Shown here piece by piece: positions 5,532 to 63,515 of a stretch of 64,000 nucleotides of DNA (positions are counted from its first letter, which is position 1; each line of letters starts with the position of its first letter). The stretch covers positions 93,396-157,395 of the forward strand of contig JAHJIW010000010.1 in NCBI GenBank assembly GCA_018823125.1, read 5' to 3'. A model generated the notes under the pieces. It worked only from the letters and a program-made list of their open reading frames with translations. It was not told the DNA's origin and ran no database searches. Source of the DNA: Candidatus Margulisiibacteriota bacterium. GTDB lineage: Bacteria; Margulisbacteria; WOR-1; JAHJIW01. Position numbers and translations under genes: made by a program.

Positions 5532-6326
5532 TCAATTTCGCAATTCCTTGATAATTTTTGTGAGCTTTGATTCAAGCTGCAGGTAGTAAGCTAAAAGCGC
5601 CCCACCCCATACCCCTAAAACCGCCACCATCAAAAGCGCCAATTTTTCGGCCCCAACGTACATTTGACTGCTGATCGCAAACCAAATAAACATCAGGCCA
5701 AATAAAAGAATTAAAACTAACGCAAGGATAAAAGTAATATATTTAAGTAATATTTCATTAATTTTAAGAAAATACTCATCGGCTAGCACCAGCGGCCGCC
5801 GTTCGAGGATTTTAGTTAAAATATTGCGCAAACGATACATACTGAGCGCATGGGTCAGCGCCATTAATCCGAAAACAAAAGCTACCAAAAAATATACCGG
5901 GGACAAACTGCGAAAAATCAGCGAAACCGCAATTAAAAAGGAAACGTAAAAAAACAATAGATAGAAATTGATTTTGGTAAAAGCAATTAATTGGGACCGC
6001 GCCGCTTCGGTTTTTTTAACGATGCCCTCTGGTATGTGCCGAGCCACGCTGCCCTCGTAAGTTACGTACCTAATTTTTAAGATGAACCACAGCACGTATA
6101 AAGGAGTGATCACGAAAAAATATATTCCGAGCAGCAGCCAAAGATTAACCCTTAAGATATTGTAAGCCAGAAAAAAGAAAATCAACAAAACAATATTAAA
6201 ACCCACCAGATCCTTGGCAAGGTTGCGGTCCGGGATCAGTTTTTCTCCACAGCTTATACATTGATGCTCAGCCAAAAATCTTTTGGGGATCGGAACCCGG
6301 GTTTTACATTTTGGACACTTCGCCAT
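5532..6326 (-). CDS. hypothetical multi-TM membrane protein with N-terminal zinc ribbon
   Basis: CPKC...CISC followed by about six hydrophobic segments. Confidence 0.65.
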   Translation of the reverse strand: MAKCPKCKTRVPIPKRFLAEHQCISCGEKLIPDRNLAKDLVGFNIVLLIFFFLAYNILRVNLWLLLGIYFFVITPLYVLWFILKIRYVTYEGSVARHIPEGIVKKTEAARSQLIAFTKINFYLLFFYVSFLIAVSLIFRSLSPVYFLVAFVFGLMALTHALSMYRLRNILTKILERRPLVLADEYFLKINEILLKYITFILALVLILLFGLMFIWFAISSQMYVGAEKLALLMVAVLGVWGGALLAYYLQLESKLTKIIKELRN

Positions 6327-8906: not shown

Positions 8907-9245
8907 ATGATTGATCATTATTCCTTCGGCCAAATAACCATTGATGGAAAAGCATATACTTCGGATGTCATCATCTATCCGGATCACGTAAACCCAAGCT
9001 GGTGGAGAAAAGAAGGACATAATCTGCAAATTGAAGACTTAACTGAAGTTATCACGGCAAAACCGGATACATTAATTATAGGAACCGGGGCTTCGGGAGT
9101 AATGGATGTCTCAGAAAAGGTAAAACAAGCTATCGCCCAAAAAGGCATAAAATTAATCGTAGAAAAAACCGGAGAAGCCTGTAAAATCTACAACAAGCTA
9201 AAAAGTTCAGGCAAAGTTATTGCGGCGCTACATTTAACCTGCTAA
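8907..9245 (+). CDS. Mth938-like (DUF498/598) protein
   Basis: IDHYSFGQITIDGKAY, WWRKEGH, LIIGTG, AALHLTC C-terminus. Confidence 0.88.
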   Translation: MIDHYSFGQITIDGKAYTSDVIIYPDHVNPSWWRKEGHNLQIEDLTEVITAKPDTLIIGTGASGVMDVSEKVKQAIAQKGIKLIVEKTGEACKIYNKLKSSGKVIAALHLTC

Positions 9246-15581: not shown

Positions 15582-16010
15582 TCAGACTTCATAAGCCCCT
15601 AAAATCGATTCTGCAACCTGGCGCATTGATTTTCTCCTGCTCATACTCTGTTCCTGCAGCTTTCGATAAGCTTCGGTAGGCCGGATATCAAATTGCGCCA
15701 TCAATATCTCCTTGGCTCGCTCAATAATTTTGCGGTCTTCGAGCTGACGCTGAAGCTCTTTTACCTGCTTTTTAAGCTTAGCATTTTCTAGCTCTAGAAC
15801 GCGAAAATTCGCCTTCTTTTGCTTAGCTAAACTATAGCAGGTTGCCCGGGCATGCCCCTCCATTTTGACCATATTATTTTTAATCAAAGGTATCATCAGC
15901 TGATTAAGCCGGGCGCGAGATATACCCAGTCGCTCCACCAGCTGCCGGCTAAAAGTATACGGATACTCTCTTAAAATATTTATTATTTCTTCCTGGCGGG
16001 AGTTTAACAT
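15582..16010 (-). CDS. winged-HTH + coiled-coil + ANTAR domain regulator
   Basis: N-terminal HTH (RQLVERLGISRARLNQL...ARATCYSL); C-terminal RKIIERAKEILM...EAYRKLQEQSMSRRKSMRQVAESIL ANTAR signature. Confidence 0.85.
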   Translation of the reverse strand: MLNSRQEEIINILREYPYTFSRQLVERLGISRARLNQLMIPLIKNNMVKMEGHARATCYSLAKQKKANFRVLELENAKLKKQVKELQRQLEDRKIIERAKEILMAQFDIRPTEAYRKLQEQSMSRRKSMRQVAESILGAYEV

Positions 16011-16016
16011 AGGGGC

Positions 16017-16046
16017 ATTATAACAAAATCGTCAAGGAATCGTCAA
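16017..16046 (-). promoter_or_regulatory. leaderless sigma70 promoter containing a TTGACGATT direct repeat
   Basis: TTGACG-N18-TATAAT with TGn extension, 6 nt to ATG; TTGACGATT at 16038-16046 and 16027-16035. Confidence 0.65.
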
Positions 16047-16112
16047 TGGAGCACTAGCCTAACTAATCCGGGCCAATTTGATCAGTTTGGAATATATCTT
16101 TAAGCAGGAAAT

Positions 16113-16922
16113 TTAGCCCCGTTTGTGTCTTGTAACATCCCTTACCGTAGCAATAAAAGCCTTGGGTCGCCCAAAAGAATCCTTGATTAAGGCGGCATTC
16201 AATTCCCCGAGAAAGCGTGACCCGTCTTTTCTAAGCAGCGTATAGGTTAAGTTACGCACCAACCCCTCCTCTAAGGTTCTTTCCAGATTTTTTTTAGCTC
16301 TGGCATGGTCCTCTGGAGCAATAAGATCAAAAGCACTTCTACCAATCAGCTCATCAGCACTGCTATAACCATGTAATTTATAGGTTTGCGCAGAAACCTC
16401 AATCACGTGTCCCTCCAGATCAGTAACCGTAATCGCTTCCGGAGAGGTTTTAAGCATGGAGCGATATAATTCTTCAGATTCGGATAACACTTTTTCCGCC
16501 TGCTTGCGCTCTGTAATGTCCATTAACGATAAAAAATAACCAATGATATTTCCTTGTTCGTCTTTGCGGGCTAAAGTAGAAATACTAAAATCAATTATAT
16601 TCCCGCTTTTGGTAACCAGGGTAGATTCCCGGTTTTTCACAAAGCCTTTTTTAAGGGTTTCTTTTTGTACTTCTTCAATCACCCGGGTTTCCGGAAAACA
16701 TTCCGCCAGACTTTGACCAATAATAACGTCGGGGGAATAGCCGAGCAGTTCGGGCAGAGTTTCGTCTACATCTAAAATTACCCCCAGCGGATTAACGTAA
16801 GCCATCGGAATCGGCAGGAATTTCCACATGTCACGAATGTAGCTTTCCAGATCGTAAACATCCTGCTCATATTTTGGGGGCCGATGACGATTATTAAATC
16901 CAGGAAACTTTATATTCATCAT
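16113..16922 (-). CDS. tandem PAS-PAC protein without an output domain
   Basis: Two PAS/PAC repeats (LGYSPDVIIGQSL...LMDITERKQAE; LHGYSSADELIGRS...VRDVTRHK); start uncertain because it overlaps the upstream gene. Confidence 0.75.
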   Translation of the reverse strand: MMNIKFPGFNNRHRPPKYEQDVYDLESYIRDMWKFLPIPMAYVNPLGVILDVDETLPELLGYSPDVIIGQSLAECFPETRVIEEVQKETLKKGFVKNRESTLVTKSGNIIDFSISTLARKDEQGNIIGYFLSLMDITERKQAEKVLSESEELYRSMLKTSPEAITVTDLEGHVIEVSAQTYKLHGYSSADELIGRSAFDLIAPEDHARAKKNLERTLEEGLVRNLTYTLLRKDGSRFLGELNAALIKDSFGRPKAFIATVRDVTRHKRG

Positions 16923-17490
16923 ACGGATCTCCTCGATAAGAACATTTAATTTGCTGACTGCTTACTTCCTTATCCGGAAGTGCAAATTGAATAATGCGGG
17001 AAAAATAACCTTCGATATATTTACAAAAAACCGGCAAAAACTTAATGCCCTCCAACCGGATGTTAACATACTTTTTCTCTTCACTATAATCTGCAATCAC
17101 GAGCTCACCGGCAGAATAGTGTTTGGGCCAATAGAGAGGCGCGGACTTGACAGTCTGCTCTAAGCTGATGAAATAACGCATTAGAATTTTTACCATAAAA
17201 GAAAACTTGGGCGCCATATTGCCCATCGCCTTCACTGCGGCATCATCCCAATTAAAAGTATCCTTAATCACCATTAAGGAAAGACCTCGCAACCCCATCG
17301 GATACCACCCCATAGCCTTAACCTTTTCAAATTCGATCGGATATCCGAGCTGCTTTAAGTTTTCTTCTACTTTTTTTAAGCCTTCTTCCCCATACTTAAT
17401 TTTAAGGTAGGTCGCATCCGTCTGGAAAACTACCCCGCGGACCTCACCCTTCATTTTCATTATATCGTCGGCTTCTTTTTTGGTAAGCAT
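16894..17490 (-). CDS. hypothetical protein, V4R / DUF2378-like
   Basis: GEVRGVVF, WYPMG, YWPKHYSAGEL, YIEGYF, KCSYRGDPYDEYKVSW resembles V4R-type ligand-binding folds; GAGG RBS before ATG 17490. Confidence 0.55.
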   Translation of the reverse strand: MLTKKEADDIMKMKGEVRGVVFQTDATYLKIKYGEEGLKKVEENLKQLGYPIEFEKVKAMGWYPMGLRGLSLMVIKDTFNWDDAAVKAMGNMAPKFSFMVKILMRYFISLEQTVKSAPLYWPKHYSAGELVIADYSEEKKYVNIRLEGIKFLPVFCKYIEGYFSRIIQFALPDKEVSSQQIKCSYRGDPYDEYKVSWI

Positions 17491-17568
17491 AGCAGACACC
17501 TCTATAGCAGCAAAATTATCACATATAACAATTATGTCAAGGATAAAAGCGAGAAAAACCTATTAAAT

Positions 17569-19142
<1,574 letters not shown>

Positions 19143-19154
19143 AAACTTTCCTCC

Positions 19155-20144
19155 TTAGCGTTTGATAAGCTCGTTAAATTTCTTTAGGCGGTTATACTCC
19201 ACCAGCGTCACTAAAGCTTTACTTTCGGTTTTAATGCCACATTCTTCGCAGGCCGCCACCGGATTAAGACCTCCCGGAACTACCAGCCCAACTTTTTCTA
19301 TCCCAACCGGCATACCTAAAACCGGCTCTTCTTCCTTACCTATATATAAGGCCCCGCCAAAACCAGCGGCTTCCGCTTTTTCTAACACTGACTCGACATC
19401 CTGCTTGGATACCGCTGGAATCTCGCGCAGTCCGGCTAATATTTTCCCCGAACCCTTAACGGCATCTCTGACACTGGTCATTTTACTTCTGATAAAAATT
19501 TCATGGGGATCCAAGGTTGACCCCGAATATCTAATTAAATCCGTAAAACGCAACGGTTTTCCCTTTTCGATCTGTAAAATTCCACCAAACTTAGAGTCCA
19601 GCGGAATCGAATGTTTTAATAATATGCCATTCAAGTTAATCGTGCATAAGGAGCCAAAACAAATTTTTCCCTGCGGAACAACCATGTCCCCTACTTCTTC
19701 GCCGGCTTCCGCCACCAATACCCGGTCGCCCATCCCCAATTTTTTCTTAAAAACATCCCGCATGATTTTCAAAGCGCCTTTAAAATCATTTTTATTAAAT
19801 AAAGAAATATTTAATATTACTTTCCCACTTTTTGTATTGAGATCGAAATCCATTAAATAAGCTTTGGATTCAATGCGCGAGCTAACCAAACCTACTTTTT
19901 CTGATACCCAAGCATTAGCTAGTTCTTCTTTTCCCATTTTAGTGATGGTTCTCCCTTCTTTCCAGGTTGACTCAGTTAGCTTTTGTTCATCCATAATTTT
20001 TAAGTGATAGCGCACCGCACGCTCCGTTAAATCGATCCCAAATTCCTTTAGTCGATCAGAAATATCCTTAGACCCCACCGGCTCACTCGACTCAGCGATA
20101 ATTCTTAAAATTGCGCTGGTTTTTCTTTCCATGTCTGCTGTCAT
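19155..20144 (-). CDS. nrpR: NrpR family nitrogen repressor (wHTH + one NrpR/DUF128 domain)
   Basis: ERAVRYHLKIMDE HTH, GRTITKMGKEEL, CTINLNGILLKHSIP, GGLNPVAA; start placed at ATG 20144 after AAGGAG. Confidence 0.88.
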   Translation of the reverse strand: MTADMERKTSAILRIIAESSEPVGSKDISDRLKEFGIDLTERAVRYHLKIMDEQKLTESTWKEGRTITKMGKEELANAWVSEKVGLVSSRIESKAYLMDFDLNTKSGKVILNISLFNKNDFKGALKIMRDVFKKKLGMGDRVLVAEAGEEVGDMVVPQGKICFGSLCTINLNGILLKHSIPLDSKFGGILQIEKGKPLRFTDLIRYSGSTLDPHEIFIRSKMTSVRDAVKGSGKILAGLREIPAVSKQDVESVLEKAEAAGFGGALYIGKEEEPVLGMPVGIEKVGLVVPGGLNPVAACEECGIKTESKALVTLVEYNRLKKFNELIKR

Positions 20145-20153
20145 AAATTCTCC

Positions 20154-20210
20154 TTGACTTACGGCAATCACTTACCGTATAATCATAACTAAGTTTACTG
20201 CAATTGTAAA
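20154..20210. promoter_or_regulatory. overlapping divergent nrpR/gdhA promoters with a TACGG-N10-CCGTA inverted repeat
   Basis: Plus strand TTGACT(20154)-N18-TATAAT(20178); minus strand TTTACA(20210)-N17-TATGAT(20187); inverted repeat at 20160-20179. Confidence 0.65.
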
Positions 20211-21631: not shown

Positions 21632-21671
21632 AAAGAAAAAAGCCTTCGAGAAATCGAAGGCTTTTTCTTTT
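21632..21671. terminator. bidirectional intrinsic terminator after gdhA
   Basis: A-tract, AGCCTTCGA-GAAA-TCGAAGGCT, T-tract, between convergent genes. Confidence 0.9.
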
Positions 21672-34155: not shown

Positions 34156-34193
34156 ATGAAATTTATCAATTAATTATCCGATAACTAAATAGA
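34156..34193 (+). promoter_or_regulatory. sigma28-like promoter, copy B
   Basis: ATGAAATTT-N13-CCGATA-N7-AGA. Confidence 0.7.
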
Positions 34194-34201
34194 AGGAAAA
34201 G

Positions 34202-35155
34202 ATGATTTTTATGCCAAAAATATCAAAATTAAATCGTAATCGAATTGATCTGCATGTTCATTCCACCCACTCGGACGGCAGACTATCGCCGCAAAACATA
34301 TTAAGGCAATGCTCTCAAGAAAGAGTAAATATGGTTGCGCTTGCCGATCACGATCGTCTAACTCCAGATTTACGTGCAGTCGCCCGTTCCTTAGGCATAA
34401 GATTGGTAATTAGCACTGAACTTGGATGCTATAGGAATGATCCTACAAAAATGGAGCACCCTTTACATATATTGGGGTATGGGATAGCTCCTTCTTCAAA
34501 CAAAATATTAAATAAATTAGCGGCCCTCGATGAATCCAGAAGAAATGATTGTTCCAGATTCAGGCAAGCACTGGAAGCTGAAGGGCTGGAAGTCAGAGAA
34601 GAAGATGTATTAAGAGAAGCCAAGGGACAAATCCCGCGGCGCTTCCATTACTCCGGCGCAACCGCAAAAAATCCAAATAATTTTGAACTATTAAGCCGAT
34701 TGTCCCCTGACCCAAAACTTAAATATGCCACTTTACGTCAAATAATGTCCGATTGTGTTTCTCGAACATCCGTATTAAGTCCCGCCGAAGCAACAAATTT
34801 AATCAAAAGCTCCGGCGGTTTTCCGGTTTTAGCACATCCCTGCCATAAATCCGATGGCTGGCCTACTCCAGATTCCCCCGGCTTAGCTGAATTTATCGAA
34901 GAACATTTACCCTTGGGCTTAATCGGGATGGAATGCTACTCTTCCCATCACCAAAGCCACATGATACCGCAACTCATTAAAATTGCTACGGATTTGAACT
35001 TAGCAATAACCGGAGGGACAGATTTTCACGGAAGAGAAGGAGAAAGATTGGGAGCGATAAAATTTAAAGATGTCTCCACTTTTATTGATTTAACCGATGA
35101 TATGCTCAATCCAAGAGGATGTCAGATAATATATTCCGCATCGGATTTAGGATAA
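34202..35155 (+). CDS. PHP-domain metallophosphoesterase (YciV/TrpH-like)
   Basis: DLHVHSTHSDG, DHD, HILGYG, VLAHP, TGGTDFHG. Confidence 0.85.
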   Translation: MIFMPKISKLNRNRIDLHVHSTHSDGRLSPQNILRQCSQERVNMVALADHDRLTPDLRAVARSLGIRLVISTELGCYRNDPTKMEHPLHILGYGIAPSSNKILNKLAALDESRRNDCSRFRQALEAEGLEVREEDVLREAKGQIPRRFHYSGATAKNPNNFELLSRLSPDPKLKYATLRQIMSDCVSRTSVLSPAEATNLIKSSGGFPVLAHPCHKSDGWPTPDSPGLAEFIEEHLPLGLIGMECYSSHHQSHMIPQLIKIATDLNLAITGGTDFHGREGERLGAIKFKDVSTFIDLTDDMLNPRGCQIIYSASDLG

Positions 35156-35157
35156 TT

Positions 35158-35967
35158 ATGCAAGCTCAAATTAACAAAGTTAATAGTTTTAAATTAAATG
35201 TTTTCCCGCGAAAGCTGAGAACCCTAAACCAAACGGTTCAGGTAGAAAAAAGAAGAAACATTCTTTATCTGTTAGCTGACCACGCCGGGAGACCCGGTCC
35301 CGGCCCCAAAGCATACTTGGGCAGCATATGTACAAGAACTGGAAATATTATTTCAACGTTCGGCCGCAGCTCTGCAGTTGACGTTTTATTAGATCACCAC
35401 GGGAAATTACATTTTAAACATGGAGATGATTATTTTGGCCAGCTTGAAGTAGAAGTTATCTTGCCAGAAGAAACCACTTTAACGATGGATGCCATAACCT
35501 ATCAACATCGACCACCCTTAATCAAAAAAATGCACATCGGAAACCCGGAGCAAAAAACACTAACCCTTTCGGTATCCAGCCTCACCCTCTGGAGAGAGGT
35601 TACAACAGAAAATATCCCGGATACACAATTAGGAGACTTCAGTTTAGTTGAACAGCCTTTTCTTTTTGCTTTTGGCTTTGATGGAAAAGTTACCGTTGGC
35701 CAGGGAATTCTTCCACAAAATATAGCGGCGGCATTAGGTAAGCTGCAACAAGAGGTTCCACGTTTTGTTCACCTTACTCAAGAACCAGACCTCGGCGAAA
35801 ATTTCTTATGTCAACACGTCAATTTACCCCGAAGCCAAGTTTCATATTCGATATTGACAAGAGAAGTTCATTTATCCGGATTAAACATTGGCATCCGAGG
35901 CAATATGGACCTTGCCAGTTTTGGCCTACACTGGAATTTGGTTTTCAACTGGGGAGTAAAAGAATAA
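35158..35967 (+). CDS. hypothetical protein
   Basis: Long ORF; ATG at 35158 follows the PHP stop codon; no recognisable motif. Confidence 0.6.
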   Translation: MQAQINKVNSFKLNVFPRKLRTLNQTVQVEKRRNILYLLADHAGRPGPGPKAYLGSICTRTGNIISTFGRSSAVDVLLDHHGKLHFKHGDDYFGQLEVEVILPEETTLTMDAITYQHRPPLIKKMHIGNPEQKTLTLSVSSLTLWREVTTENIPDTQLGDFSLVEQPFLFAFGFDGKVTVGQGILPQNIAAALGKLQQEVPRFVHLTQEPDLGENFLCQHVNLPRSQVSYSILTREVHLSGLNIGIRGNMDLASFGLHWNLVFNWGVKE

Positions 35968-36004
35968 AAAATATCAATTTCCTGAAAAAATATGCCTCCT
36001 GAAA

Positions 36005-36043
36005 GTGAAATTTTTGCACGTGTATTCCGATAAATAAGCAGAG
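36005..36043 (+). promoter_or_regulatory. sigma28-like promoter, copy C
   Basis: GTGAAATTT-N13-CCGATA-N7-AGAG. Confidence 0.75.
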
Positions 36044-36069
36044 ACTTAAAGTCCAAGGTTAGGTTCGAG

Positions 36070-36105
36070 AAGCCGCCAATTTTTTTCTGGCGGTTTTTTA
36101 TTTTT
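36070..36105 (+). terminator. intrinsic terminator in the saccharopine dehydrogenase leader
   Basis: AAGCCGCCA-N9-TGGCGGTTT, continuing as TTTATTTTT, immediately before the AAAGGGG RBS. Confidence 0.75.
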
Positions 36106-36120
36106 AAAGGGGTGGTCCAT

Positions 36121-37452
36121 ATGCCAAAAGTATTAATTATGGGAGCCGGAATGGTTTCGAATCCGCTGGTAAGACACGTCTCAAGACTAAAGGGGTACCG
36201 CGTCACCGTTGCAGACCAAAACTTAAGCGCCGCACAAAGAGTGATTGGAAACCAAAGAAACTGCCGTTCAATCGCCTTAAACGCCACTGATATCGCAGCA
36301 GTAACAAGAGAAGCTAATCAGGCCGATATTGTGGTAAGCATATTGCCTCCGGAATTTCACGTTGGAGTAGCAAAAGCCTGTTTAGATGCCAATTCACATT
36401 TAGTAACCACTTCATATATCTCTCCCGACATGGAAGCCCTGCACGAACAATTTTTACAAAGAGGTCTTCTTTCTTTAAACGGGATGGGACTTGATCCGGG
36501 AATAGACATTCTTTCTGCCATGCAAATAATCCATAGAACCCAGGCCTCAGGCGGAAAGATCACCGGATTTTTCTCCGCCTGCGGCGGACTTCCTGCACCC
36601 GAAGCAAATAATAATCCCTTCGGATATAAATTTGCGTGGACGCCTTCCGGAGTTTTTAAAGCCATGACCAACGGCGCAGTTTATTTAAGAGACGGGAAAC
36701 AAGAATCGATTCCCGCTGATCAACTTTTTGCTAATCCCACGCAACATGTATTTGAAGAAATTGGCACACTCGAAGCCTACCCTAACCGCGACTCGGTTAG
36801 TTTTATTGAAAGCTTTGACCTTCAGGGGGTCAGCAACATGCTGCGCGCTACTTTTAGGTATCCAGGCTGGTGCAGATTCTGGCATAAAGCAGCCCACACC
36901 GGAATATTAAGTTTGGATCCTATCGCGAGCCCTAATTCATTGAGATTCGTGGATTTAACCAGCAGAATCATTGGCGTAAAATCATCGGCCTCTGTACGCG
37001 AAGCGTTTGCCGCAACCATTGGCGAAGAAAAAGATTCTGAAATAGTTGAAATGGCCAAATGGCTGGGACTTTTTTCAACTGACGCTATCCCGACTAGATT
37101 GGATTCACCCTTTGCGGTTATCGTTCATCTGGCCGCCAAAAGAATGAAATATGCTAAAGGTGAAAGAGACATGTCTGCCATGCAGCACGTATTTGATATT
37201 GAAACACGAGACGGAACCCGACAAAGACAAACCTCAATTCTGGTGGATTATGGTATTCCAAACGGCGATTCCTCAATGGCAAGAACAGTTGGATTAACCG
37301 CCGCCATAGGTGCAAAACTAATTGCGGAAGGAAAAATTACTGCCCGGGGAGTTATTTTACCCACTCTTCCAGAAATTTATAATCCAGCAATCGAACAACT
37401 GGAAGATATGGGAATCAAAATGGAACACCGCTTTGAAACCTTAGACGGTTAA
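36121..37452 (+). CDS. saccharopine dehydrogenase (glutamate-forming; Lys9 / AASS-SDH-like)
   Basis: KVLIMGAG, VTTSY, GLDPGID, CGGLPAPE..NNPFGYKFAW, EAYPNRDS, RATFRY, SSMARTVG. Confidence 0.88.
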   Translation: MPKVLIMGAGMVSNPLVRHVSRLKGYRVTVADQNLSAAQRVIGNQRNCRSIALNATDIAAVTREANQADIVVSILPPEFHVGVAKACLDANSHLVTTSYISPDMEALHEQFLQRGLLSLNGMGLDPGIDILSAMQIIHRTQASGGKITGFFSACGGLPAPEANNNPFGYKFAWTPSGVFKAMTNGAVYLRDGKQESIPADQLFANPTQHVFEEIGTLEAYPNRDSVSFIESFDLQGVSNMLRATFRYPGWCRFWHKAAHTGILSLDPIASPNSLRFVDLTSRIIGVKSSASVREAFAATIGEEKDSEIVEMAKWLGLFSTDAIPTRLDSPFAVIVHLAAKRMKYAKGERDMSAMQHVFDIETRDGTRQRQTSILVDYGIPNGDSSMARTVGLTAAIGAKLIAEGKITARGVILPTLPEIYNPAIEQLEDMGIKMEHRFETLDG

Positions 37453-38208
37453 TTATGATGCCGTCGGCCTTTGATTTTCCAGCTCGAATACGGGCGAGGT
37501 AAAAATTGTCATAAAGGCAGAGTCGCCTAAATAAAAATTATTTTCTGGATGGGTCCGGCTGCCGGTCAAACAAATATCCTGCGGATGAAACCAGCTCACA
37601 AACACAAACTTAATGCCCTGCCCCATCAAAGTTTGGATCGTACGCCAAAGTTCAGCCTGCTCATTCAAAAAAGAATCATTAAAATAAAATACCTTTACCT
37701 TAGCCCATCGCAGCTTTAAAAAGGGAAGCTCAATATCTTCTTCGATGTCCCGGATTACTGGGAATAGCCACTGACATTCATCAATAATTATAACTCTCGA
37801 CTTTTTGCCAGCCGCCAAAGTTTCCGCTTTCGTTTTTCTAAAGCACTCTCTTACTACCTGCGAGCTAACTTTCTCCCTGATAAATTCATATACTAGGAGC
37901 CTCTCCCCCATTTTTAAATAAGCGGCTTTTCCTAAATGTTCCACGAGTACCGGTTGAAGCACATTTTGCGCCCAGTATGTTTTACCGATCTTAGTATTAT
38001 TTCTAAAACAGTAATGGCGGTTTCTAACGCTGTCATGATAATGCCGGCCGCTAACATAGATCGATTCATATTTTTTTAGTCGGTCCACCGCCACCTGCGC
38101 GGCTTCACGGGCGGCTCCACGTCTAACTCTGTACACAAAACCGGGAACCAACTGATAATGGCCTTTCTGAATATGAGGACAGACTGGTGCCTTAATTGAA
38201 GTTCTCAT
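37453..38208 (-). CDS. hypothetical protein with degenerate P-loop NTPase motifs
   Basis: NNTKIGKT (Walker-A-like) and VIIIDE (Walker-B-like); ATG at 38208 overlaps the end of the amidohydrolase. Confidence 0.55.
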   Translation of the reverse strand: MRTSIKAPVCPHIQKGHYQLVPGFVYRVRRGAAREAAQVAVDRLKKYESIYVSGRHYHDSVRNRHYCFRNNTKIGKTYWAQNVLQPVLVEHLGKAAYLKMGERLLVYEFIREKVSSQVVRECFRKTKAETLAAGKKSRVIIIDECQWLFPVIRDIEEDIELPFLKLRWAKVKVFYFNDSFLNEQAELWRTIQTLMGQGIKFVFVSWFHPQDICLTGSRTHPENNFYLGDSAFMTIFTSPVFELENQRPTAS

Positions 38209-39784
38209 AAACCACTCCGCCATCAAAAATAGTTAAAAGCGGACGGGTCGATAGTAAATCCGGCGCCGGAATTTTAAAAAAGTCAGGACGCAATACAACC
38301 AAATCCGCAATATATCCGGGCTTTACCGCACCTTCAACTTTTTCGCGGCAGGCAGCATAGGCATTTCCATAAATATATGCCCCAAGCGCCTGCTTTAAAG
38401 TTAAACGCTGGTTAGGATACCAGCCGCCGCGCGGAGTTCCGTCTAACCGCGTCCGCTGGGTCGCAGCAAATAAGCCTTTCATGGGATTGGGGGTTTCAAT
38501 AGGAGCATCTGAACTAAAGGCCAGGGTAACTCTCGCTTCGTACATTTCTCTCATGCGATAAGCGCGGCGCGCTCTTCTTCCCAAAAACTCATTCGCAGTT
38601 GATATATCATCCGGAAGTTGTGACGGCTGCATCGATGCAATAATCCCTAACCAGGCAATACGCCTTAACTCATGGGTTCTTAAAAGTTGCACGTGTTCAA
38701 TCCTTGACCGCAAATTTGGATCAATCGATCGCGAAGCTTCAATGGCATCAATAGCATTTTTATTAGCACGCTCGCCAATGGCATGAATTGCTGCAGGAAA
38801 ACCATGTCTTGCGGACTCAACCACTTCTTCAATTAATTGATCGCGGGGAATCACTTCTTCTCCGCAGGAAAACGTGCCATTGTAAGGTTTAAACGTTAAT
38901 GCGGTTTGCGCTCCCAGCGTACCGTCAGAAATAAATTTTGTTCCCAATACCGAAAATCTATCGTCTTCTTCCACGCGCGCCGCTAAAGCCAGCTCCAGAT
39001 CTCTAAATAAAAATCCCATCCGGATCCTGAAATTTAACTGCCCGTTATCTCTCAAAGACTGATAAGCCGCATATTCTTCTCTTCCGGAAACGTCGCCAAA
39101 ACCAACCCCAAAGGTATGGGTAGAAGTTATGCCTAGCGAAAACATTTGCGGTATGCCAATGCTTAACGCAGCCTTTATGGCCTCCTGATCCGGTTTGGGT
39201 ATATGTGGCTTTACCAGATCGCAAGCTGTCTCCAAAAACACGCCGGTAGGATTACCAGCTGCATCCCTTATAATTTTTCCGCCTTCCGGATCCGCTGTGT
39301 TACGGGTAATTCCAGCTCTCTCCAATACTTCCGAATTAACCCAAAGCAAATGCGAACAATAACTAGTCAAAGCCGTTGGGATTTTTCCGGTTATCGCATC
39401 CAACTCCTGCCGGATCGGGAATCTTCCGCCAAATCTATCTTTATGCCAACCACCGCCCCGGATCCACTGCCCCACATCTAACCCTTCTGTTCTGCCTCTC
39501 ACTGCTTCCAGCATTTTTTCCGGAGTTTTAGCTTCTCTCAAGTCAAGTTGAGTCAGCCTTAATGAGTAATCAACAAAATGAGTATGGCCATCTACAAAAG
39601 CCGGCATGAGGACGGCGCCTTTCAGGTCAACATCGCTCCCCAAACAAGGTGGTGCTTTTCTTTGGGCGGGTCGCACTTCGATAATTCTTCCGTGCTGGCA
39701 TACTACATCACTAAGTCCCCGGTCAAGCCGCGGGGTTTTTGGATGGAAAACGCGGGCATTTCTCAAAACTAATCTACCTGGCAT
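38192..39784 (-). CDS. amidohydrolase family 3 (YtcJ-like) protein
   Basis: PAFVDGHTH, KFISDG, HAIGERA, RIEHVQ, FSSDAP, GYIADLVVL. Confidence 0.88.
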   Translation of the reverse strand: MPGRLVLRNARVFHPKTPRLDRGLSDVVCQHGRIIEVRPAQRKAPPCLGSDVDLKGAVLMPAFVDGHTHFVDYSLRLTQLDLREAKTPEKMLEAVRGRTEGLDVGQWIRGGGWHKDRFGGRFPIRQELDAITGKIPTALTSYCSHLLWVNSEVLERAGITRNTADPEGGKIIRDAAGNPTGVFLETACDLVKPHIPKPDQEAIKAALSIGIPQMFSLGITSTHTFGVGFGDVSGREEYAAYQSLRDNGQLNFRIRMGFLFRDLELALAARVEEDDRFSVLGTKFISDGTLGAQTALTFKPYNGTFSCGEEVIPRDQLIEEVVESARHGFPAAIHAIGERANKNAIDAIEASRSIDPNLRSRIEHVQLLRTHELRRIAWLGIIASMQPSQLPDDISTANEFLGRRARRAYRMREMYEARVTLAFSSDAPIETPNPMKGLFAATQRTRLDGTPRGGWYPNQRLTLKQALGAYIYGNAYAACREKVEGAVKPGYIADLVVLRPDFFKIPAPDLLSTRPLLTIFDGGVVYENFN

Positions 39785-39796
39785 AAAAATTCCCTC

Positions 39797-39833
39797 AAAA
39801 CAGCAAAGCCGATCCTAAAAATTTAGGATCGGC
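39797..39833 (-). terminator. intrinsic terminator between LKR and the amidohydrolase
   Basis: GCCGATCCTAAA / TTTAGGATCGGC stem followed by TTTGCTGTTTT, directly before the GAGGG RBS. Confidence 0.75.
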
Positions 39834-39849
39834 CTGCTAAAATAATAAA

Positions 39850-41283
39850 CTATATATTCACATCGTGTTTATCTTTTAATTCTGCACCGTGTTCAATTAG
39901 TGCGTCCAGCATTAATTGATTATCCGCATACCTTGGAGTAAATTCTCCTCTCCAAACAATAACCGCATTTCTTATCTGCGGCGGAAGTGAATTTCTTCCT
40001 ACAGCAAACGGTTGATTATATTCTGCGCTAGCAATACCTGAAACAAACGGCAAAAGCATACGGCTAAATTCCGCCGCCGAAACTGCCGGCAATTCACAAG
40101 GCATGGTTTCTACTGCGTTAACCGGAATCCCAGTACCGTTCACTCCATAAGTAATTCTACCGGTGCTAGGATTATATACATAAAATGGATTTTCAGGTTT
40201 AGTCCCCGCTAGCGTTCCATGCATCGGACCTTGGCCAGTAGTTGCATTAAATACGTCGCATCCTACATCGCCAATGGCTACCAAACGATTATCCGAGGTA
40301 CTTAACGCCGATGCCATAAGATCTCTCGAGACCAAAGCTGGCTGTCCAGGTTTCCAAAGCGCATTATTCATAAGCAACGTAAAGAGATGCAGATAGCGAC
40401 CCATAGTAGATTCATAAGCCTCGGGATCAGCATCTAAATCTGTTTTTGAACCCGGTCTTCCATCAATCCTCTGGTATCTTCCATTTGGTCCGATTCGGTC
40501 AAACAAAACGCTGTAAACTTCATTTCTCGAAAGCGATTGCAGGGTTGCCGGATCCAGGAGATCGCTGGGCGAAAGGCTTTTTGCTCCGAGAGCATTATAT
40601 ATTTCAAGCGAACCTTGTCCGCAGCGTCCACCACCCGTAAATCCAACAATCATGGGCGGCATACCATCTGGAAGTCCATTCTTTTTAATATCCTTTCCGA
40701 TTTTTCCTAGCTGCGCCTTGATCTGATCAATTGCATCCTCGCCAGAATAATCAAAAGCCTGCCTGACGGATAAAAATGGATTTTCAATTCCCATCACATC
40801 CAATCTTCTACCTAACAGATGTAAAGAATCAGTCATACCTACAATTCCCGCAAACCGGCCAAAAGCAACTAACCTCTCCCCCCTATCATTTGTAATATAT
40901 TCATAATCAACATAAGTTGCTCGGGCATCTACAATATTTTGCAGCATATTCATATTTTCCGGCTGTCCCTTAGTAACATGCCCAAAAAATACATAGACTC
41001 CATTTTCCTTAAAAACATCCGCCGGAATTTGTTTTACCCCAAACATCAATGGTTTCTCCGGACTTAGCTCGGTAACAATGCGGGCACCGGCATCCCGGTA
41101 CGCTTGCGCTGGATAAATCCTGAGTGGAGACCTTTGAACTGTAACTTCTAATGCATGCTGGCCGGTTAATTCCGCAACCGCAGACGGATTTAAAGTTACC
41201 CTTCTTTCATAACGATGCATCACTTCACGCGGGATCTGGACGGTTCTGGCTCTTTTTTGAACTGGTCGTGCTACGCTTGTCAT
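39850..41283 (-). CDS. lysine-ketoglutarate reductase / Lys1-type saccharopine dehydrogenase (AlaDh/PNT fold)
   Basis: YERRV, GVKQ, FFGHVTKGQ, DYEYI...RLVAFGRFAG, GDVGCD, VETMPCELP match the LKR domain of AASS; ATG at 41283 after AAAGGGGG. Confidence 0.85.
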   Translation of the reverse strand: MTSVARPVQKRARTVQIPREVMHRYERRVTLNPSAVAELTGQHALEVTVQRSPLRIYPAQAYRDAGARIVTELSPEKPLMFGVKQIPADVFKENGVYVFFGHVTKGQPENMNMLQNIVDARATYVDYEYITNDRGERLVAFGRFAGIVGMTDSLHLLGRRLDVMGIENPFLSVRQAFDYSGEDAIDQIKAQLGKIGKDIKKNGLPDGMPPMIVGFTGGGRCGQGSLEIYNALGAKSLSPSDLLDPATLQSLSRNEVYSVLFDRIGPNGRYQRIDGRPGSKTDLDADPEAYESTMGRYLHLFTLLMNNALWKPGQPALVSRDLMASALSTSDNRLVAIGDVGCDVFNATTGQGPMHGTLAGTKPENPFYVYNPSTGRITYGVNGTGIPVNAVETMPCELPAVSAAEFSRMLLPFVSGIASAEYNQPFAVGRNSLPPQIRNAVIVWRGEFTPRYADNQLMLDALIEHGAELKDKHDVNI

Positions 41284-41334
41284 ATTAATTCCCCCTTTCA
41301 TTATTATAAGTATATGTTTTGCCAAGATTCCGAT

Positions 41335-43311
41335 TTAGAATGTATCCTTTTTTGCACCTCCTTCAAACTTATCTTTTGTTAATCCCATATTTAATTTTGG
41401 CTTCATGGTCGGAAACAAGATAATATCTCGAATAGAAGCCGAGTTGGTTACCACCATAGCTAACCGGTCAATTCCAATTCCCAATCCACCCGTAGGTGGC
41501 ATCCCAATTTCTAAAGCCTGCACAAAGTTTTCATCAAAAGGATGCGCTTCCTCGTCTCCTTGCCCAGCTCTCACCACCTGTTCTTCAAAACGCAATCTTT
41601 GATCGATCGGATTATTTAATTCCGAAAAGGCATTGGCAATTTCCATTCCGCCAGCCACAAAAGCTTCAAAGCGTTCTACATATTCCGGATCCTCCGGACA
41701 GCGTTTGGCTAAAGGGGTGGTAACCGTTGGATACCGGGTCACAAAAGTGGGTTGAACCAGCTGGCTTTCGGCTAATTCTTCAAAAAGCGTGGCAATGATC
41801 CATCCACGCTGCATGTTATCTTCAAGTTCAATTCCTCTTTCTTCGGCAATGGCTCTTAAACTGTCAACACTGGCTCCCATTACCGATACCCCACCCATCT
41901 GTTCAATTGCAGCCTCCATGGTCACCCTTCTCCAGGGCGGAGCAAAATTTAGCAGCGTTCCTTGATAATCAATTTGATGTTTGCCGCAAACTTCCCTGAC
42001 AATGTGCGCCACCATAGTTTCGGTAATCCACATCATTTGCTCATAGTCAGTATAAGCCCAGTATAATTCCATGGAAGTAAACTCAGGATTATGTTTCTTA
42101 TCAATCCCTTCGTTTCTAAAAATTCTTCCAATTTCAAAAACCCTTTCGTAACCACCGGCAATCAAGCGCTTTAGATCAAGTTCGGTCGCAATGCGCAGGG
42201 TCAAATCCATACCCAAAGCATGTGATGTAGTGACAAAGGGTCGCGCAGCGGCTCCGCCGTGCATTTCCTGCAATATCGGCGTTTCAACCTCCATAAATTC
42301 ATGTCCCCATAAAAACTGGCGCATTTCGCGCACTACCTGACTGCGGGCTCTAAATCTTGCTCTAACCGAAGCATTCGAAGCCAAATGCATATAGCGTTGA
42401 CGCTGCTGAAGCTCGGGATCATCCAGTCCCATATGGGTTCCTTCTTCACTGGTTTTTCCCGGCAGAGGACGAATGGCTGATGCCAGAAGCGTATAATCTT
42501 CTATCCTTAAAGTTAATTCACCGGTCCGGGTATGAAACATGCGCCCTTGCAGCCCTAAAAAGTCACCCGTGATTATTTGTTTTCTAAATAAACCATATGC
42601 TTCTTCCCCAACTTCGTCGCTTTGCATAAAAATCTGAACACGGCCGGACTCATCTTCAATGTGTCCGAAAGAAATTCTTCCCTGTTCTCTTTTTAATACT
42701 AATCGGCCGGCAATCCTGACCTCGGTTGGCAAGGCTCCTCCCTCGCCGATTGCTTCGCACTGACTTCTTAAATCACCAATATGATGGGTCCGGTCATATT
42801 TTGTAGCGCCATAAGGATTAATCCCCTGCTCCAACAAATTTTGCACCCGGGTATACCCTTGAATTACAGTTGGGTTCCAGGTTGCAGGATATGGAGACAA
42901 AATAATGTCTGAAACTCTTAACACAACTTCGCCGCGATGATCATGACTGACATCCCCAATAAAACCAAAATTATCTCCGTTTCCCATAGAAATCCTTAAT
43001 GCATCAATGCTTTGCTGAGGGATAGATCCCTTAGCAAACATAATTTGAATTTCGCCACTTTCATCCGTAACTTTTCCTTGTGATGCTTTATGGATTTTTC
43101 CTTTAATGACTAAATTCCCGATAATTTGAATACCCTGCGGCAGGTTAGCTCCTTGCGGCAGCGCTTCGCACCGGGTTCTCAATTCTGCGACGCTGTGGGT
43201 ACGATTAAAAGTGTTGGTAGAATGGGGCTTAAAACCTCCTCGTATAACAGAATGCAGATTCCCGTATCCCCTAATCCTTGGAGCAGTTGCCTTTGAAGTT
43301 GTAGATACCAT
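41335..43311 (-). CDS. second class II lysyl-tRNA synthetase with a duplicated N-terminal OB fold
   Basis: Motif 1 EVETPIL, motif 2 FRNEGIDKKHNPEF, EIANAFSELN, motif 3 GLGIGIDR; two RTH...DESG.(I/V)QI blocks; ATG at 43311 after AAGGAG. Confidence 0.9.
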   Translation of the reverse strand: MVSTTSKATAPRIRGYGNLHSVIRGGFKPHSTNTFNRTHSVAELRTRCEALPQGANLPQGIQIIGNLVIKGKIHKASQGKVTDESGEIQIMFAKGSIPQQSIDALRISMGNGDNFGFIGDVSHDHRGEVVLRVSDIILSPYPATWNPTVIQGYTRVQNLLEQGINPYGATKYDRTHHIGDLRSQCEAIGEGGALPTEVRIAGRLVLKREQGRISFGHIEDESGRVQIFMQSDEVGEEAYGLFRKQIITGDFLGLQGRMFHTRTGELTLRIEDYTLLASAIRPLPGKTSEEGTHMGLDDPELQQRQRYMHLASNASVRARFRARSQVVREMRQFLWGHEFMEVETPILQEMHGGAAARPFVTTSHALGMDLTLRIATELDLKRLIAGGYERVFEIGRIFRNEGIDKKHNPEFTSMELYWAYTDYEQMMWITETMVAHIVREVCGKHQIDYQGTLLNFAPPWRRVTMEAAIEQMGGVSVMGASVDSLRAIAEERGIELEDNMQRGWIIATLFEELAESQLVQPTFVTRYPTVTTPLAKRCPEDPEYVERFEAFVAGGMEIANAFSELNNPIDQRLRFEEQVVRAGQGDEEAHPFDENFVQALEIGMPPTGGLGIGIDRLAMVVTNSASIRDIILFPTMKPKLNMGLTKDKFEGGAKKDTF

Positions 43312-43333
43312 TTTGTACTCCTTTCTTTTTTTC

Positions 43334-43370
43334 AAAATAAAAAAGCCGTTCCGATTTGTCGGGACGGCTT
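43334..43370 (-). terminator. intrinsic terminator in the LysRS2 leader
   Basis: AAGCCGT-c-CCGA-CAAA-TCGG-a-ACGGCTT followed by TTTTATTTT. Confidence 0.75.
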
Positions 43371-43402
43371 CTTGAACCTTTTATCAAAGATTGGACTTTT
43401 GT

Positions 43403-43441
43403 CTCTAGTAGTATATCGGGAGGTAGTTAAATAAATTTCAC
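43403..43441 (-). promoter_or_regulatory. sigma28-like promoter, copy D
   Basis: GTGAAATTT-N13-CCGATA-N7-AGAG. Confidence 0.75.
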
Positions 43442-49903: not shown

Positions 49904-51418
49904 TTATTCTTCCTTCGTAAAAACGATATCTTCAGCTTGCTTCGCTTCGGGGCGCATGTGCGGGAATAAAATTACGTCTCGAATGGACGATGAATTGGTC
50001 ATCAGCATCACCAAGCGATCGATTCCGATGCCCAGTCCGCCCGCCGGCGGCATGCCGTATTCGAGCGCATTTAAATAATCCTCATCCATCGATTCGGTTT
50101 CCATATCGCCTTCGGCTTTGCGTTTTAGTTGTTCTTCGAAACGCGCTCTTTGATCCCGGGGATCATTTAATTCCGAAAATGCATTCGCAAGCTCCATCCC
50201 GGCCACCACTACTTCAAAACGTTCTACTAATCTATCATTTCCCCGTTTTTTCTTAGCCAAAGGCGAAGTTTCGATCGGGTAATCGGTAATAAAAGTAGGC
50301 TGAATGATATGGGGCTCGACAAACTTGTCATAAATTAAGTTGATCAGTTTACCTTTGCGCTCTTCTTCGTAGCCTTCGATGCCTTTACCCTTTAAATATT
50401 TATGCAATTCTTCTTCAGATAAATTAATATCGATCCCGGCATGCTCTTTTACTAAATCTGCTAAAGTCATTCTTTTCCAAGGAGCTTTAAAATCTAAATC
50501 AAAGTCTTTATATTTAACTTTAGTGGTGCCTAAAACATCGTTCATTACTTTTTCTACTAAAGCTTCGGTATTTTTCATGACTTCTTCATAGTCAACGTAG
50601 GCTTGATAAGCTTCGAGCATGGTATATTCGGGATTATGTTTGTAGGAGATGCCTTCGTTTCTAAAAGATTTACCGATTTCAAAAACTTTTTCTAAGCCTC
50701 CTACCAAAAGCCGCTTTAAATAAAGCTCGGGAGCAATCCGCATGTAAAGTTTCATGTCCAAAGCATTATGATAAGACTCAAACGGCCGCGCGGCGGCCCC
50801 ACCCGCCTGCACCTGCAGGATCGGAGTTTCCACTTCGATAAAACCTTGATCAATTAAAAACCGCCGAATCGCAGCAATAATGTTACTGCGGATAATGAAA
50901 AGGTCGCGCACCTCTGCGTTGGAAATTAAATCCACGTAACGCTGACGGTAACGAATCTCTTTATTGGTTAAACCGTGCCATTTTTCGGGCAGTGGGTGCA
51001 AAGATTTAGTTAATAAATTGAATTTATTAACCTTAACCGTAATTTCGCCGGTTTTGGTTTTAAAAACATGGCCGTCAATACCAATAAAGTCGCCAATATC
51101 TAGTTTTTGGAAAAGTTTAAAGCGATCATCGCCAATGACGTCTTTTTTAGCGTAAATCTGAATTTTTCCGTCACCATCTAAAATATGACCAAAACAAGTT
51201 TTTCCGTGACCACGCCGGGTGACAAACCGTCCGGCAATGCGTATTTCCTCTTTTGATTCTTCAGTAATATCGTTAAATTTATCTAAAACCTCTTTTGAAG
51301 TATGGGTTCGAGAATAACTATACGAGTAAGGAGTTTCCCCCGCCGCTTCAAATTCCTCAATTTTATCGTAGCGCTGTTTAATCAGTTCGCTTAATTCGGG
51401 GGAATCTTTCTTTTCCAT
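49904..51418 (-). CDS. lysS: lysine--tRNA ligase (canonical class II)
   Basis: Single OB domain, RIAPELYLKR, FRNEG, ELANAFSELND, GLGIGIDR. Confidence 0.97.
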   Translation of the reverse strand: MEKKDSPELSELIKQRYDKIEEFEAAGETPYSYSYSRTHTSKEVLDKFNDITEESKEEIRIAGRFVTRRGHGKTCFGHILDGDGKIQIYAKKDVIGDDRFKLFQKLDIGDFIGIDGHVFKTKTGEITVKVNKFNLLTKSLHPLPEKWHGLTNKEIRYRQRYVDLISNAEVRDLFIIRSNIIAAIRRFLIDQGFIEVETPILQVQAGGAAARPFESYHNALDMKLYMRIAPELYLKRLLVGGLEKVFEIGKSFRNEGISYKHNPEYTMLEAYQAYVDYEEVMKNTEALVEKVMNDVLGTTKVKYKDFDLDFKAPWKRMTLADLVKEHAGIDINLSEEELHKYLKGKGIEGYEEERKGKLINLIYDKFVEPHIIQPTFITDYPIETSPLAKKKRGNDRLVERFEVVVAGMELANAFSELNDPRDQRARFEEQLKRKAEGDMETESMDEDYLNALEYGMPPAGGLGIGIDRLVMLMTNSSSIRDVILFPHMRPEAKQAEDIVFTKEE

Positions 51419-62453: not shown

Positions 62454-63515
62454 ATGTTATTTAATCTCATTATTAACACAAGTAAAATTTCTCCTTTTAT
62501 TGCCTTTCTGGTAAGTGCTTTTCTTGGAATATGGATATATTCATATAATCGAAAAAGCATAAAGAATATTCTTTTTGCATTATTTAGCTTTGATCTCGCA
62601 ATTTGGGCACTTTGTTGCTATATACAAAGCAACACAAAAAACTATGGAATCGCTTTATTGTCCGATCAAATACTATATTCCGTAGCAGCTTTTGCCCCAG
62701 CTCTTTTCATTCACTGCATTTCATTTTTTACTCAAAGAGAACGGAAAGGAATAATATCATTTAGCTACCTTCTAGGCTTTATATTTTTCATAATGAATTG
62801 GTTTCCAATTTTCAGATCGGGAGTAGCTCTCAATTTTGGAATGAGGTTCGTAACTATTCCAAACATTGGCTGGTATCTTTATCTTTTAGCCTACTCAATT
62901 ATTATTCTGATTGCTATATTGGATTTAATAAAAGCAATTATCAGTAAAACTGGCAAAGAAAGACAACAATTAATCCATGTCTCATTGGCATTTATAGTTT
63001 TATTAGCCGGAGGACAAAGTTATTTTATATTAATCATTAACAAATTTAATTACTTAATTGATAGTATACTAAATTTATCGTCTTCTATTTTACTCGCCTT
63101 ATATAGCATAATAATTACGCTTATTATCATCCGCCACCGCCTCATGGATATTAACGTTGTTATTAAGAAAGGACTAGTTTACTCAACCATCATCGCCATA
63201 TTTACCGGCCTATACCTCGTCGCTATATATCTAATCAGTCAACTTTTCGGCAATATCCTTGGCGTCGGATCCCTTTGGATTGCAGCAATCTTAATTTTCA
63301 TCTTTGCCCTACTCTTTCAGCCGCTGAAGAACAAAATCAACCAAATTATCGATAAACTCTTCTTCAAAAGTAGTTATGAATATCATACTGCACTAAAAAA
63401 TATCAGCAAAAAGGTTGCCATGGCAACAAATTTAGAAGAGTTAGACAACCTTTTATCTAAAGAAGTAAACTCCATATTAAAAGTGAACCATATAAAAATT
63501 CAAAAATTTATTTGA
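62454..63515 (+). CDS. 7TM receptor-like protein with no kinase domain
   Basis: 7TM region plus RHRLMDINVVIKKG..YS and FFKSSYEY as in the 58980 kinase, but stops before GAF/HisKA. Confidence 0.8.
   Translation: MLFNLIINTSKISPFIAFLVSAFLGIWIYSYNRKSIKNILFALFSFDLAIWALCCYIQSNTKNYGIALLSDQILYSVAAFAPALFIHCISFFTQRERKGIISFSYLLGFIFFIMNWFPIFRSGVALNFGMRFVTIPNIGWYLYLLAYSIIILIAILDLIKAIISKTGKERQQLIHVSLAFIVLLAGGQSYFILIINKFNYLIDSILNLSSSILLALYSIIITLIIIRHRLMDINVVIKKGLVYSTIIAIFTGLYLVAIYLISQLFGNILGVGSLWIAAILIFIFALLFQPLKNKINQIIDKLFFKSSYEYHTALKNISKKVAMATNLEELDNLLSKEVNSILKVNHIKIQKFI

Follow-up and report, generated by a model that had tools for sequence, protein, structure and literature searches.

Leader terminators with a conserved 13-base foot element behind sigma-28-like promoters in a Candidatus Margulisiibacteriota genome: a possible family of attenuators

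Why would a bacterial promoter be followed, before the gene that it precedes, by a complete terminator ending just ahead of the Shine-Dalgarno (SD) sequence? This question is raised by a stretch of contig JAHJIW010000010.1 (assembly GCA_018823125.1, positions 93,396 to 157,395) from a Candidatus Margulisiibacteriota bacterium, the whole of which, 64 kb with 42% G+C, we call the window. Margulisiibacteriota/Saganbacteria are the non-photosynthetic sister lineage of cyanobacteria, and a full-text literature search returned nothing on gene regulation in them. The window holds four copies (A, B, C and D) of the promoter motif GTGAAAT-N14-nCCGATAw, all intergenic, and in A, C and D the promoter leads into a short leader, a canonical intrinsic terminator and, immediately, the SD sequence and ATG of a gene (Table 1). 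A reading of the DNA made from its sequence only had proposed these leaders as a new attenuation system. We find that C and D share an invariant element at the terminator foot, which recurs in relatives, and on a roughly even balance of belief we take both to be cis-acting, promoter-proximal, factor-dependent attenuators of one new family.

Promoters and terminated leaders

The leader and promoter sequences quoted in the sequence-only reading are all present where it had placed them, and its terminators do lie between promoter and SD as canonical intrinsic terminators, that is, as G+C-rich stem-loops followed by a U tract, with the stem kept by compensatory change. In C and D the leaders measure 60-70 nt and the terminator stands 5-20 nt ahead of the SD. 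Whole-leader folds beat those of shuffled sequences (z -2.5 for C, -4.9 for D and -4.9 for A), with energies of -13.7 to -23.8 kcal/mol that derive mostly from the terminator hairpin, and the tails read U6AU4-5. There is no room for a second promoter between the leader promoter and the SD in the A, C and D units, and copy B serves as a terminator-free control.

The claim of an alternative-sigma promoter is borne out by its elements and their spacing, which fit the sigma-28 consensus of GCCGATAA at -15 to -8 and xxxAAAx at -36 to -30 (AAA core at -33 to -31) (PMC12784957). All four window copies agree with this FliA/SigD type, with a spacer of exactly 14 nt, and it is this match that places the transcription start at the G of AGAG. 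The promoter therefore appears to be of a sigma-28-like, alternative-sigma type. The motif was also scanned in metagenomes and in the genomes of a GTDB collection of which the window's own genome is not part, both scans giving at least the numbers of matches listed. Among the GTDB matches listed, almost all belong to metagenome-assembled genomes (MAGs) of Margulisiibacteriota, Saganbacteria or WOR-1, with several in each genome; there the promoter mostly stands right before an SD and ATG, and a minority of copies drive free-standing short RNAs ending in terminators. It is thus a phylum-wide promoter type and not special to these leaders.

The same promoter type also precedes a small RNA (sRNA) of about 65 nt that is conserved across Margulisiibacteriota/Saganbacteria and has no copy in the window. 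It was seen at L145, L157, L168, L170, L179, L192, L198, L201, L207, L217, L218, L226, L244 and L245 (in L218 on the minus strand, with its start at about nt 5843 of the reverse complement) and has the form GGAAG-CCAUAC-CUUUC...GUCGAAC...stem-GCCUGU-stem-U6, with two hairpins whose hexaloops are conserved and whose stems covary; it could be a protein-sequestering RNA. The GCCUGU terminator loop is found in other short RNAs as well (L063, L122, L215, L238). Complementarity of the leaders to this sRNA (UCGAAC) was considered, and it fits copy C alone and was judged to be chance.

A conserved element at the terminator foot

Do the leaders of A, C and D form one family? The transcribed parts of C and D are similar with a score of 28, against 15.0 +/- 2.5 for dinucleotide shuffles, a value that one shuffle in 2000 reached. 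The similarity of A to C or D is insignificant (62 and 83 of 2000 shuffles reach it), its best local alignment with D is nothing but the TTTTATTTT run of the U tract, and a covariance model of the C/D element did not recover copy A at E<=5. Of the three related leaders with ordered blocks that had been proposed, the relation stands for C and D and falls for A, which has the promoter and the architecture in common with them, not the leader blocks, and lies outside their family. AGAGAC, which had been counted among the shared leader blocks, belongs to the promoter or start site, because across the lineage promoters of this kind are followed by AGAG(A/G)G. The product of the copy A gene is an orphan for which no homologues were found when orthologous leaders were sought, and about 13 kb of extra sequence beyond the window ends holds no further copies.

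What C and D share is the block GGUUC-N-AGAA-R-CC, which forms the 5' foot of the terminator in both. The closest proteins to the LysRS behind leader D come from Saganbacteria/Margulisbacteria (59-60% identity), and among nine relatives of this D-type LysRS whose loci were looked up, the exact element is found in the LysRS leaders of L251 (65% protein identity), L255 (64%) and L339 (55%); these leaders are 45-170 nt long, start from a promoter of the type seen here and continue through the element and a terminator to SD and ATG. Conservation in orthologous loci, on which the sequence-only reading had made its case depend, thus holds for the terminator-adjacent block in all three. L324, a Margulisiibacteriota MAG, also has the element behind a promoter of this type, 40 nt ahead of a TPR/transglutaminase gene and between divergent genes, a setting in which its terminator is not merely an operon end.

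In the resulting family of six members (C, D, L251, L255, L339 and L324) the 13-mer is invariant apart from N and R, and the apical hairpin, its loop and the upstream leader drift freely. The basal terminator stem has 97.8% of its cells paired, and three of its nine pairs are changed on both sides (five sequences). Five of the 13 invariant bases, GGUUC, lie outside the terminator stem, and R co-varies with its terminator partner. The position of the element is fixed with respect to the terminator and varies from about 23 to about 125 nt with respect to the start site, which argues for a role in the RNA or in termination rather than for a DNA operator. As the main explanation we rejected such an operator also because the G variant of R breaks the DNA symmetry and keeps the RNA pairing. 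Judged from these comparisons, the conservation of the foot is what marks a termination-linked RNA element under sequence selection, as distinct from a plain terminator or from a DNA operator.

A covariance model (R1) built from five members, with L339 left out of training, scores its own members at 45-48 bits (C 45.8, D 47.1), as expected by construction, and detects the untrained L339 at 29.5 bits (E 1.3e-4); over 1.7 Mb of lineage DNA nothing else rises above 20.5 bits. Against Rfam 15 the window has no match at the gathering thresholds, and more permissive thresholds, tried on both leaders and four orthologous loci, brought no usable match either, the best sub-threshold scores being 22.6/40 for NsiR4 and 21.7/47 for rimP, with none in the orthologous loci. 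The covariance-model search of related DNA and Rfam that the sequence-only reading had called for recovered L339, and neither copy A nor an Rfam family. A scan of GTDB genomes for the element plus a terminator gave 76 matches, about the chance number by a rough estimate; some 25 of them are ordinary terminators of Proteobacteria, Firmicutes and others, and only L324 is in the right phylum and context. The two-block leader pattern was discarded, as its 13 matches in GTDB genomes come from unrelated taxa, are mostly coding and are about as many as chance predicts. The element itself is real, conserved and previously undescribed; the kind of control that it suggests is well known.

The same architecture also occurs with other terminators. 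The Saganbacteria operon of L253/L254 has it with a generic terminator, much like copy A: at L253 134-238 a sigma-28-like promoter, short leader, terminator, SD and ATG without GGUUC precede a PhzF-LysRS-AlaDh-LAM operon of a Saganbacteria MAG (in this record the start of the first gene appears to be called too far upstream). At L162 (about 6476-6416, minus strand of the locus), likewise without GGUUC, it precedes the gene of a 1276-aa protein without a Pfam domain.

Table 1. Positions in the window of the four promoter copies, their leaders and genes, and of the candidate factor gene
Feature	Position	Strand	Details
Copy C promoter	36005..36033	+	-35 GTGAAAT 36005-36011; -10 TCCGATAA 36026-36033; sigma-28-like
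Copy C start region	36040-36045	+	AGAGAC; predicted start G36041
Copy C leader RNA	36041..36105	+	5' mini-hairpin GAC-UUAAA-GUC
Copy C leader block	36048-36056	+	AAAGTCCAA; in leader RNA AAAGUCCAA
Copy C core element	36062-36074	+	GGTTCGAGAAGCC; in leader RNA GGUUCGAGAAGCC
Copy C terminator	stem 36070-36096	+	T/U run to 36105
Copy C SD and gene	36106..37452	+	SD AAAGGGGTGG 36106-36115; ATG 36121; saccharopine dehydrogenase-like (Sacchrp_dh_NADP + Sacchrp_dh_C)
Copy D promoter	43413..43441	-	-35 GTGAAAT 43441-43435; N14; -10 CCCGATAT 43420-43413
Copy D start region	43406-43401	-	AGAGAC; predicted start G43405
Copy D leader RNA	43334..43405	-	5' mini-hairpin GAC-AAAA-GUC
Copy D leader block	43400-43391	-	AAAAGTCCAA; in leader RNA AAAAGUCCAA
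Copy D core element	43378-43366	-	GGTTCAAGAAGCC; in leader RNA GGUUCAAGAAGCC
Copy D terminator	stem 43370-43343	-	T/U run to 43334
Operon D	38192..43325	-	SD 43325-43318; ATG 43311; LysRS paralogue, then AlaDh_PNT_N, then Amidohydro_3
Operon D genes		-	LysRS paralogue 43311-41335; AlaDh_PNT_N protein 41325-39850; Amidohydro_3 protein 39784-38192
Copy A promoter	8850-8822	-	-35 8850-8844; -10 CACGAAAG 8829-8822; AGAG 8815-8812
Copy A leader	8801-8776 (hairpin/terminator)	-	leader ~40 nt; U run to 8768
Copy A SD and gene		-	SD 8767-8762; ATG 8755; orphan 327-aa protein
Copy B	34156..34204	+	promoter 34156-34184; straight into SD and ATG of PHP-domain gene; terminator-free control
wHTH-ANTAR protein	15582..16010	-	142 aa; Pfam PF03861 E 1.7e-19; candidate trans-acting antiterminator

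Proposed conditional readthrough and its alternatives

How could such a leader be read through? In the mechanism that we propose, a sigma-28-like holoenzyme would start at the G of AGAGAC, and after 60-70 nt the RNA would fold into the strong intrinsic terminator with the invariant GGUUC-N-AGAA-R-CC as its 5' foot, so that most transcripts would end 5-20 nt before the SD. Readthrough would need a trans-acting factor that holds GGUU paired with ARCC in a mini-hairpin with the loop C-N-A-G-A, and this mini-hairpin would take away four basal terminator pairs and leave the remaining stem uncoupled from the U tract. The small GGUU/AGCC antiterminator, suggested earlier for C and D, is available in all six members (in the five aligned sequences, and by eye in L339), and in each of them it uses the basal 5' strand of the terminator and so excludes the terminator foot. 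In nascent-length folds its probability is 0.46-0.98 in four of the six leaders. According to the folding models a self-sufficient antiterminator structure is absent and the mini-hairpin cannot win alone, which is why a factor would be needed. Two further pairings of block 1 (AAAAG-N-CC) were set aside: the one with the SD is seen in D only, and the one with the 3' foot and U tract comes up in folds constrained to contain the mini-hairpin and is partly trivial, as A-rich runs pair with U tracts. Control of this kind is known from the ribonucleic antiterminator (RAT) leaders of BglG/SacY/LicT and from the HutP, GlpP and PyrR attenuators, which likewise have a short leader, a weak, protein-needing antiterminator overlapping the 5' arm of the terminator, and a terminator just before the first gene; the present leaders have no sequence likeness to RAT, to the UAG repeats or to the PyrR box.

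The most concrete candidate for the factor, a leading one and not a conclusion, is a protein with a winged helix-turn-helix (wHTH) and an ANTAR domain encoded in the window. A search for antiterminator proteins had been recommended, and it gave this candidate by its match to PF03861; Pfam annotation of the window showed no gene for CAT/PRD, HutP or PyrR. Its family is essentially confined to Margulisiibacteriota/Saganbacteria (about 95 clusters, 50-69% identity) and aligns to the ANTAR domains of EutV, AmiR and NasR. At the 5' base of their terminator, known ANTAR targets have a conserved 13-nt sequence, AGCAANGRRGCUY, which forms a mini-hairpin whose fourth loop base is G (PMC3369931); in the structure of EutV with RNA this G alone is contacted base-specifically (PMC8934654). 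The leaders of C and D resemble the targets of EutV (eut), AmiR (amiE) and NasR (nasF) in having a 13-nt sequence that overlaps the terminator foot, a mini-hairpin incompatible with the terminator, a G as fourth loop base, a second small hairpin upstream and an ANTAR protein in the same genome. They differ in their pentaloop C-N-A-G-A, where known targets have a hexaloop A-x-x-G-x-x, so that A at position 1 is missing, and in the upstream hairpin, whose loop is A-rich without G and whose linker is 8-21 nt; the protein differs in its N-terminus, which is a winged helix instead of a REC, NIT or GAF domain. The known targets are nitrogen-scavenging operons, and the window's ANTAR gene lies inside a string of nitrogen-regulation genes near GS, GDH and GltD-like genes. 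This string (15582-20171, minus strand) runs through an NrpR-like regulator, AmtB, PII, a 201-aa protein, a PAS protein and the wHTH-ANTAR protein, then CarA/CarB. As candidate factor the wHTH-ANTAR protein would tie the expression of the saccharopine/LysRS cluster to nitrogen status. A 282-aa protein encoded upstream of C was dropped as a linked regulator, having no homologue upstream of the L339, L338 or L252 leaders.

A number of points weigh against conditional readthrough or against this factor. Readthrough, the mini-hairpin and the identity of both factor and signal are deduced from sequence; what is shown is the promoter-terminator-SD anatomy, its conservation and the invariance of the foot. 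The mini-hairpin has only 4 bp and is less favourable than the terminator fold by 7-13 kcal/mol in each of the six leaders except L255, where the difference is 0; it is improbable in nascent folds of D and L324, and it shows no covariation in the five-sequence alignment. Once truncated, the leaders are no more stably folded than shuffled sequences (z 0.0 and -0.5), and the upstream hairpins cannot be aligned between members and have A-rich loops without G. The canonical ANTAR signature of two tandem hairpins of at least 3 bp with A1/G4 hexaloops, the defining test of an ANTAR target, is absent from the expected place in all nine leaders, and no convincing dual ANTAR motif occurs in the window's intergenic regions, nor one with a terminator in 1.8 Mb of lineage DNA; of the marks of an ANTAR target, the overlap with the terminator foot and the protein in the genome are therefore present and the dual hexaloops are not. 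In the orthologous LysRS operons of L256, L257/L258 and L259 the promoter is present and the leader terminator is not. Finally, A, C and D are each the first same-strand terminator after an upstream unit without one of its own.

These last two observations would suit ordinary, unregulated terminators that end the upstream units (the larA string, the PHP operon, PEPCK) and pass a fixed small fraction of transcripts from a strong local promoter for low expression, or, in a bolder variant, are passed more readily by complexes that have just left the local promoter than by mature ones. The 64 kb has just four strong intergenic terminators, of which A, C and D make up three, and a stable alternative structure is lacking. 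The earlier argument that the hairpins cannot just be operon ends is accordingly weaker than it was put, also for copy A, said to have no same-strand gene upstream: the adjacent DUF498 (8907-9245) is indeed divergent, but 490 nt upstream lies the end of PEPCK (9246-11027), a same-strand gene lacking its own terminator. Such constitutive dampening leaves unexplained why 13 foot bases, with GGUUC outside the stem, stay invariant at 55-65% protein identity around a drifting hairpin, and it does not fit the divergent intergenic region of L324; for promoter-proximal complexes bypassing intrinsic terminators we know of no mechanism. We consider it unlikely as the whole explanation, although an insulating or dampening role may exist alongside regulation. 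If the terminators are constitutive, they are ordinary expression-tuning terminators of local interest only.

The short terminated RNAs might themselves be the product, as sibling trans-acting sRNAs of about 60-70 nt, the downstream genes being expressed by incidental readthrough. The many free-standing short RNAs with a 5' hairpin, linker and terminator that this promoter type drives in Margulisiibacteriota/Saganbacteria speak for this, as does a sub-threshold resemblance of copy C to NsiR4 (RF02677; 22.6 vs 40 bits) over the 5' hairpin and the terminator; both are about 65 nt long and have a 5' GAC-loop-GUC hairpin, a single-stranded middle, a CCGCC...GGCGG terminator and a nitrogen-metabolism context. 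NsiR4 is the nitrogen-stress sRNA of cyanobacteria (PMC9196836). The likeness extends neither to D nor to the orthologues, and the central region that binds targets in NsiR4 is missing; the leader here runs straight into an SD and gene, and its promoter is sigma-28-like where that of NsiR4 is NtcA-dependent. With the terminator 5-20 nt from the SD and no other promoter, the downstream genes depend on the leader promoter, and the leader upstream of the element differs between members in sequence and in length (23 to 125 nt) and, the terminator-adjacent block aside, offers no conserved single-stranded seed; we regard an sRNA function as quite doubtful. We think still less of a riboswitch for lysine, saccharopine or a related metabolite, or of a leader that senses tRNA-Lys or is autoregulated by LysRS, which would be very improbable. 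Five of the six members do precede lysine-related cluster genes (LysRS, Sacchrp_dh), and the variable R makes AAR, a lysine codon, in every one; compensatory pairing in the terminator already accounts for R, and L324 precedes a TPR/transglutaminase gene. The lysine riboswitch (L-box) and the T-box of lysS/lysK are also leader terminators ahead of lysine-related or LysRS genes, but those are multi-helix RNAs of 180-300 nt, and the conserved part here has neither the size nor the structure of a known aptamer type, nor an Rfam match. Lysine or saccharopine as the ligand, as first envisaged, has thus become doubtful. Inspection of the leaders revealed no UGGN partner for a tRNA acceptor end, conserved anticodon-like loop or leader peptide: C offers no AUG, GUG or UUG preceded by an SD, and in D, L251 and L255 starts either lack an SD or lie inside a hairpin loop. 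Mimicry of tRNA-Lys, a T-box-like UGGN and a mimic of the anticodon loop for LysRS were likewise rejected as not conserved by eye.

The genes concerned and what the element would mean

The LysRS of operon D carries a tandem duplicate of its N-terminal OB anticodon-binding domain (copies 32% identical, E 2e-25). A second, canonical LysRS of 504 aa is encoded at 49904-51418 (minus strand) and is 46% identical to it. In all nine relatives examined the LysRS gene adjoins an AlaDh_PNT_N gene, and some add Sacchrp_dh and PHP; across window 34202-43311 and L252, L253, L255-L259 and L339 the cluster often comes with Sacchrp_dh, PHP, amidohydrolase or lysine 2,3-aminomutase genes. Going by its promoters, the LysRS-AlaDh_PNT_N cluster is a conserved member of the sigma-28-like regulon. 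Within operon D a 13-bp hairpin with an interrupted U tract (CUUUGCUGUUUUG; 39806-39835, minus strand) is found between the genes for the AlaDh_PNT_N protein and the amidohydrolase, immediately ahead of the SD, and may be a second, weaker attenuator or a stabiliser.

Elsewhere in the window, the convergent PEPCK and DUF498 genes abut stop-to-stop at 9245/9246 without an intervening terminator, so that transcription from PEPCK must continue across DUF498 in antisense until it reaches the hairpin of copy A. A perfect bidirectional terminator at 21634-21662, between the convergent GDH gene and a 142-aa gene, is the window's only classical intergenic terminator. At and beyond the right window end (62454-63515, and L336 11087-14237) stand three tandem HisKA_7TM paralogues, interrupted by a 345-aa gene without a Pfam match.

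For the lineage, the proposed factor-dependent attenuation at C and D comes with a concrete cis element (a 13-mer plus terminator with six members and a working covariance model), and both its promoter type and a candidate for the trans factor are now defined. If readthrough is conditional, the element would be a new minimal antiterminator motif and would link the conserved LysRS/AlaDh_PNT/saccharopine-dehydrogenase cluster to a regulatory signal, and if an ANTAR protein binds it, the accepted rule of ANTAR recognition would widen. We raise, as a speculative and rather unlikely extension, a new antitermination specificity in which the wHTH-ANTAR protein or another lineage-specific factor would read the single minimal pentaloop hairpin GGUU-CNAGA-ARCC and gate part of the sigma-28-like regulon (the LysRS paralogue and saccharopine enzymes) by nitrogen status. 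If true, this would be two-key control, by sigma factor and antiterminator, in a phylum without studied gene regulation.

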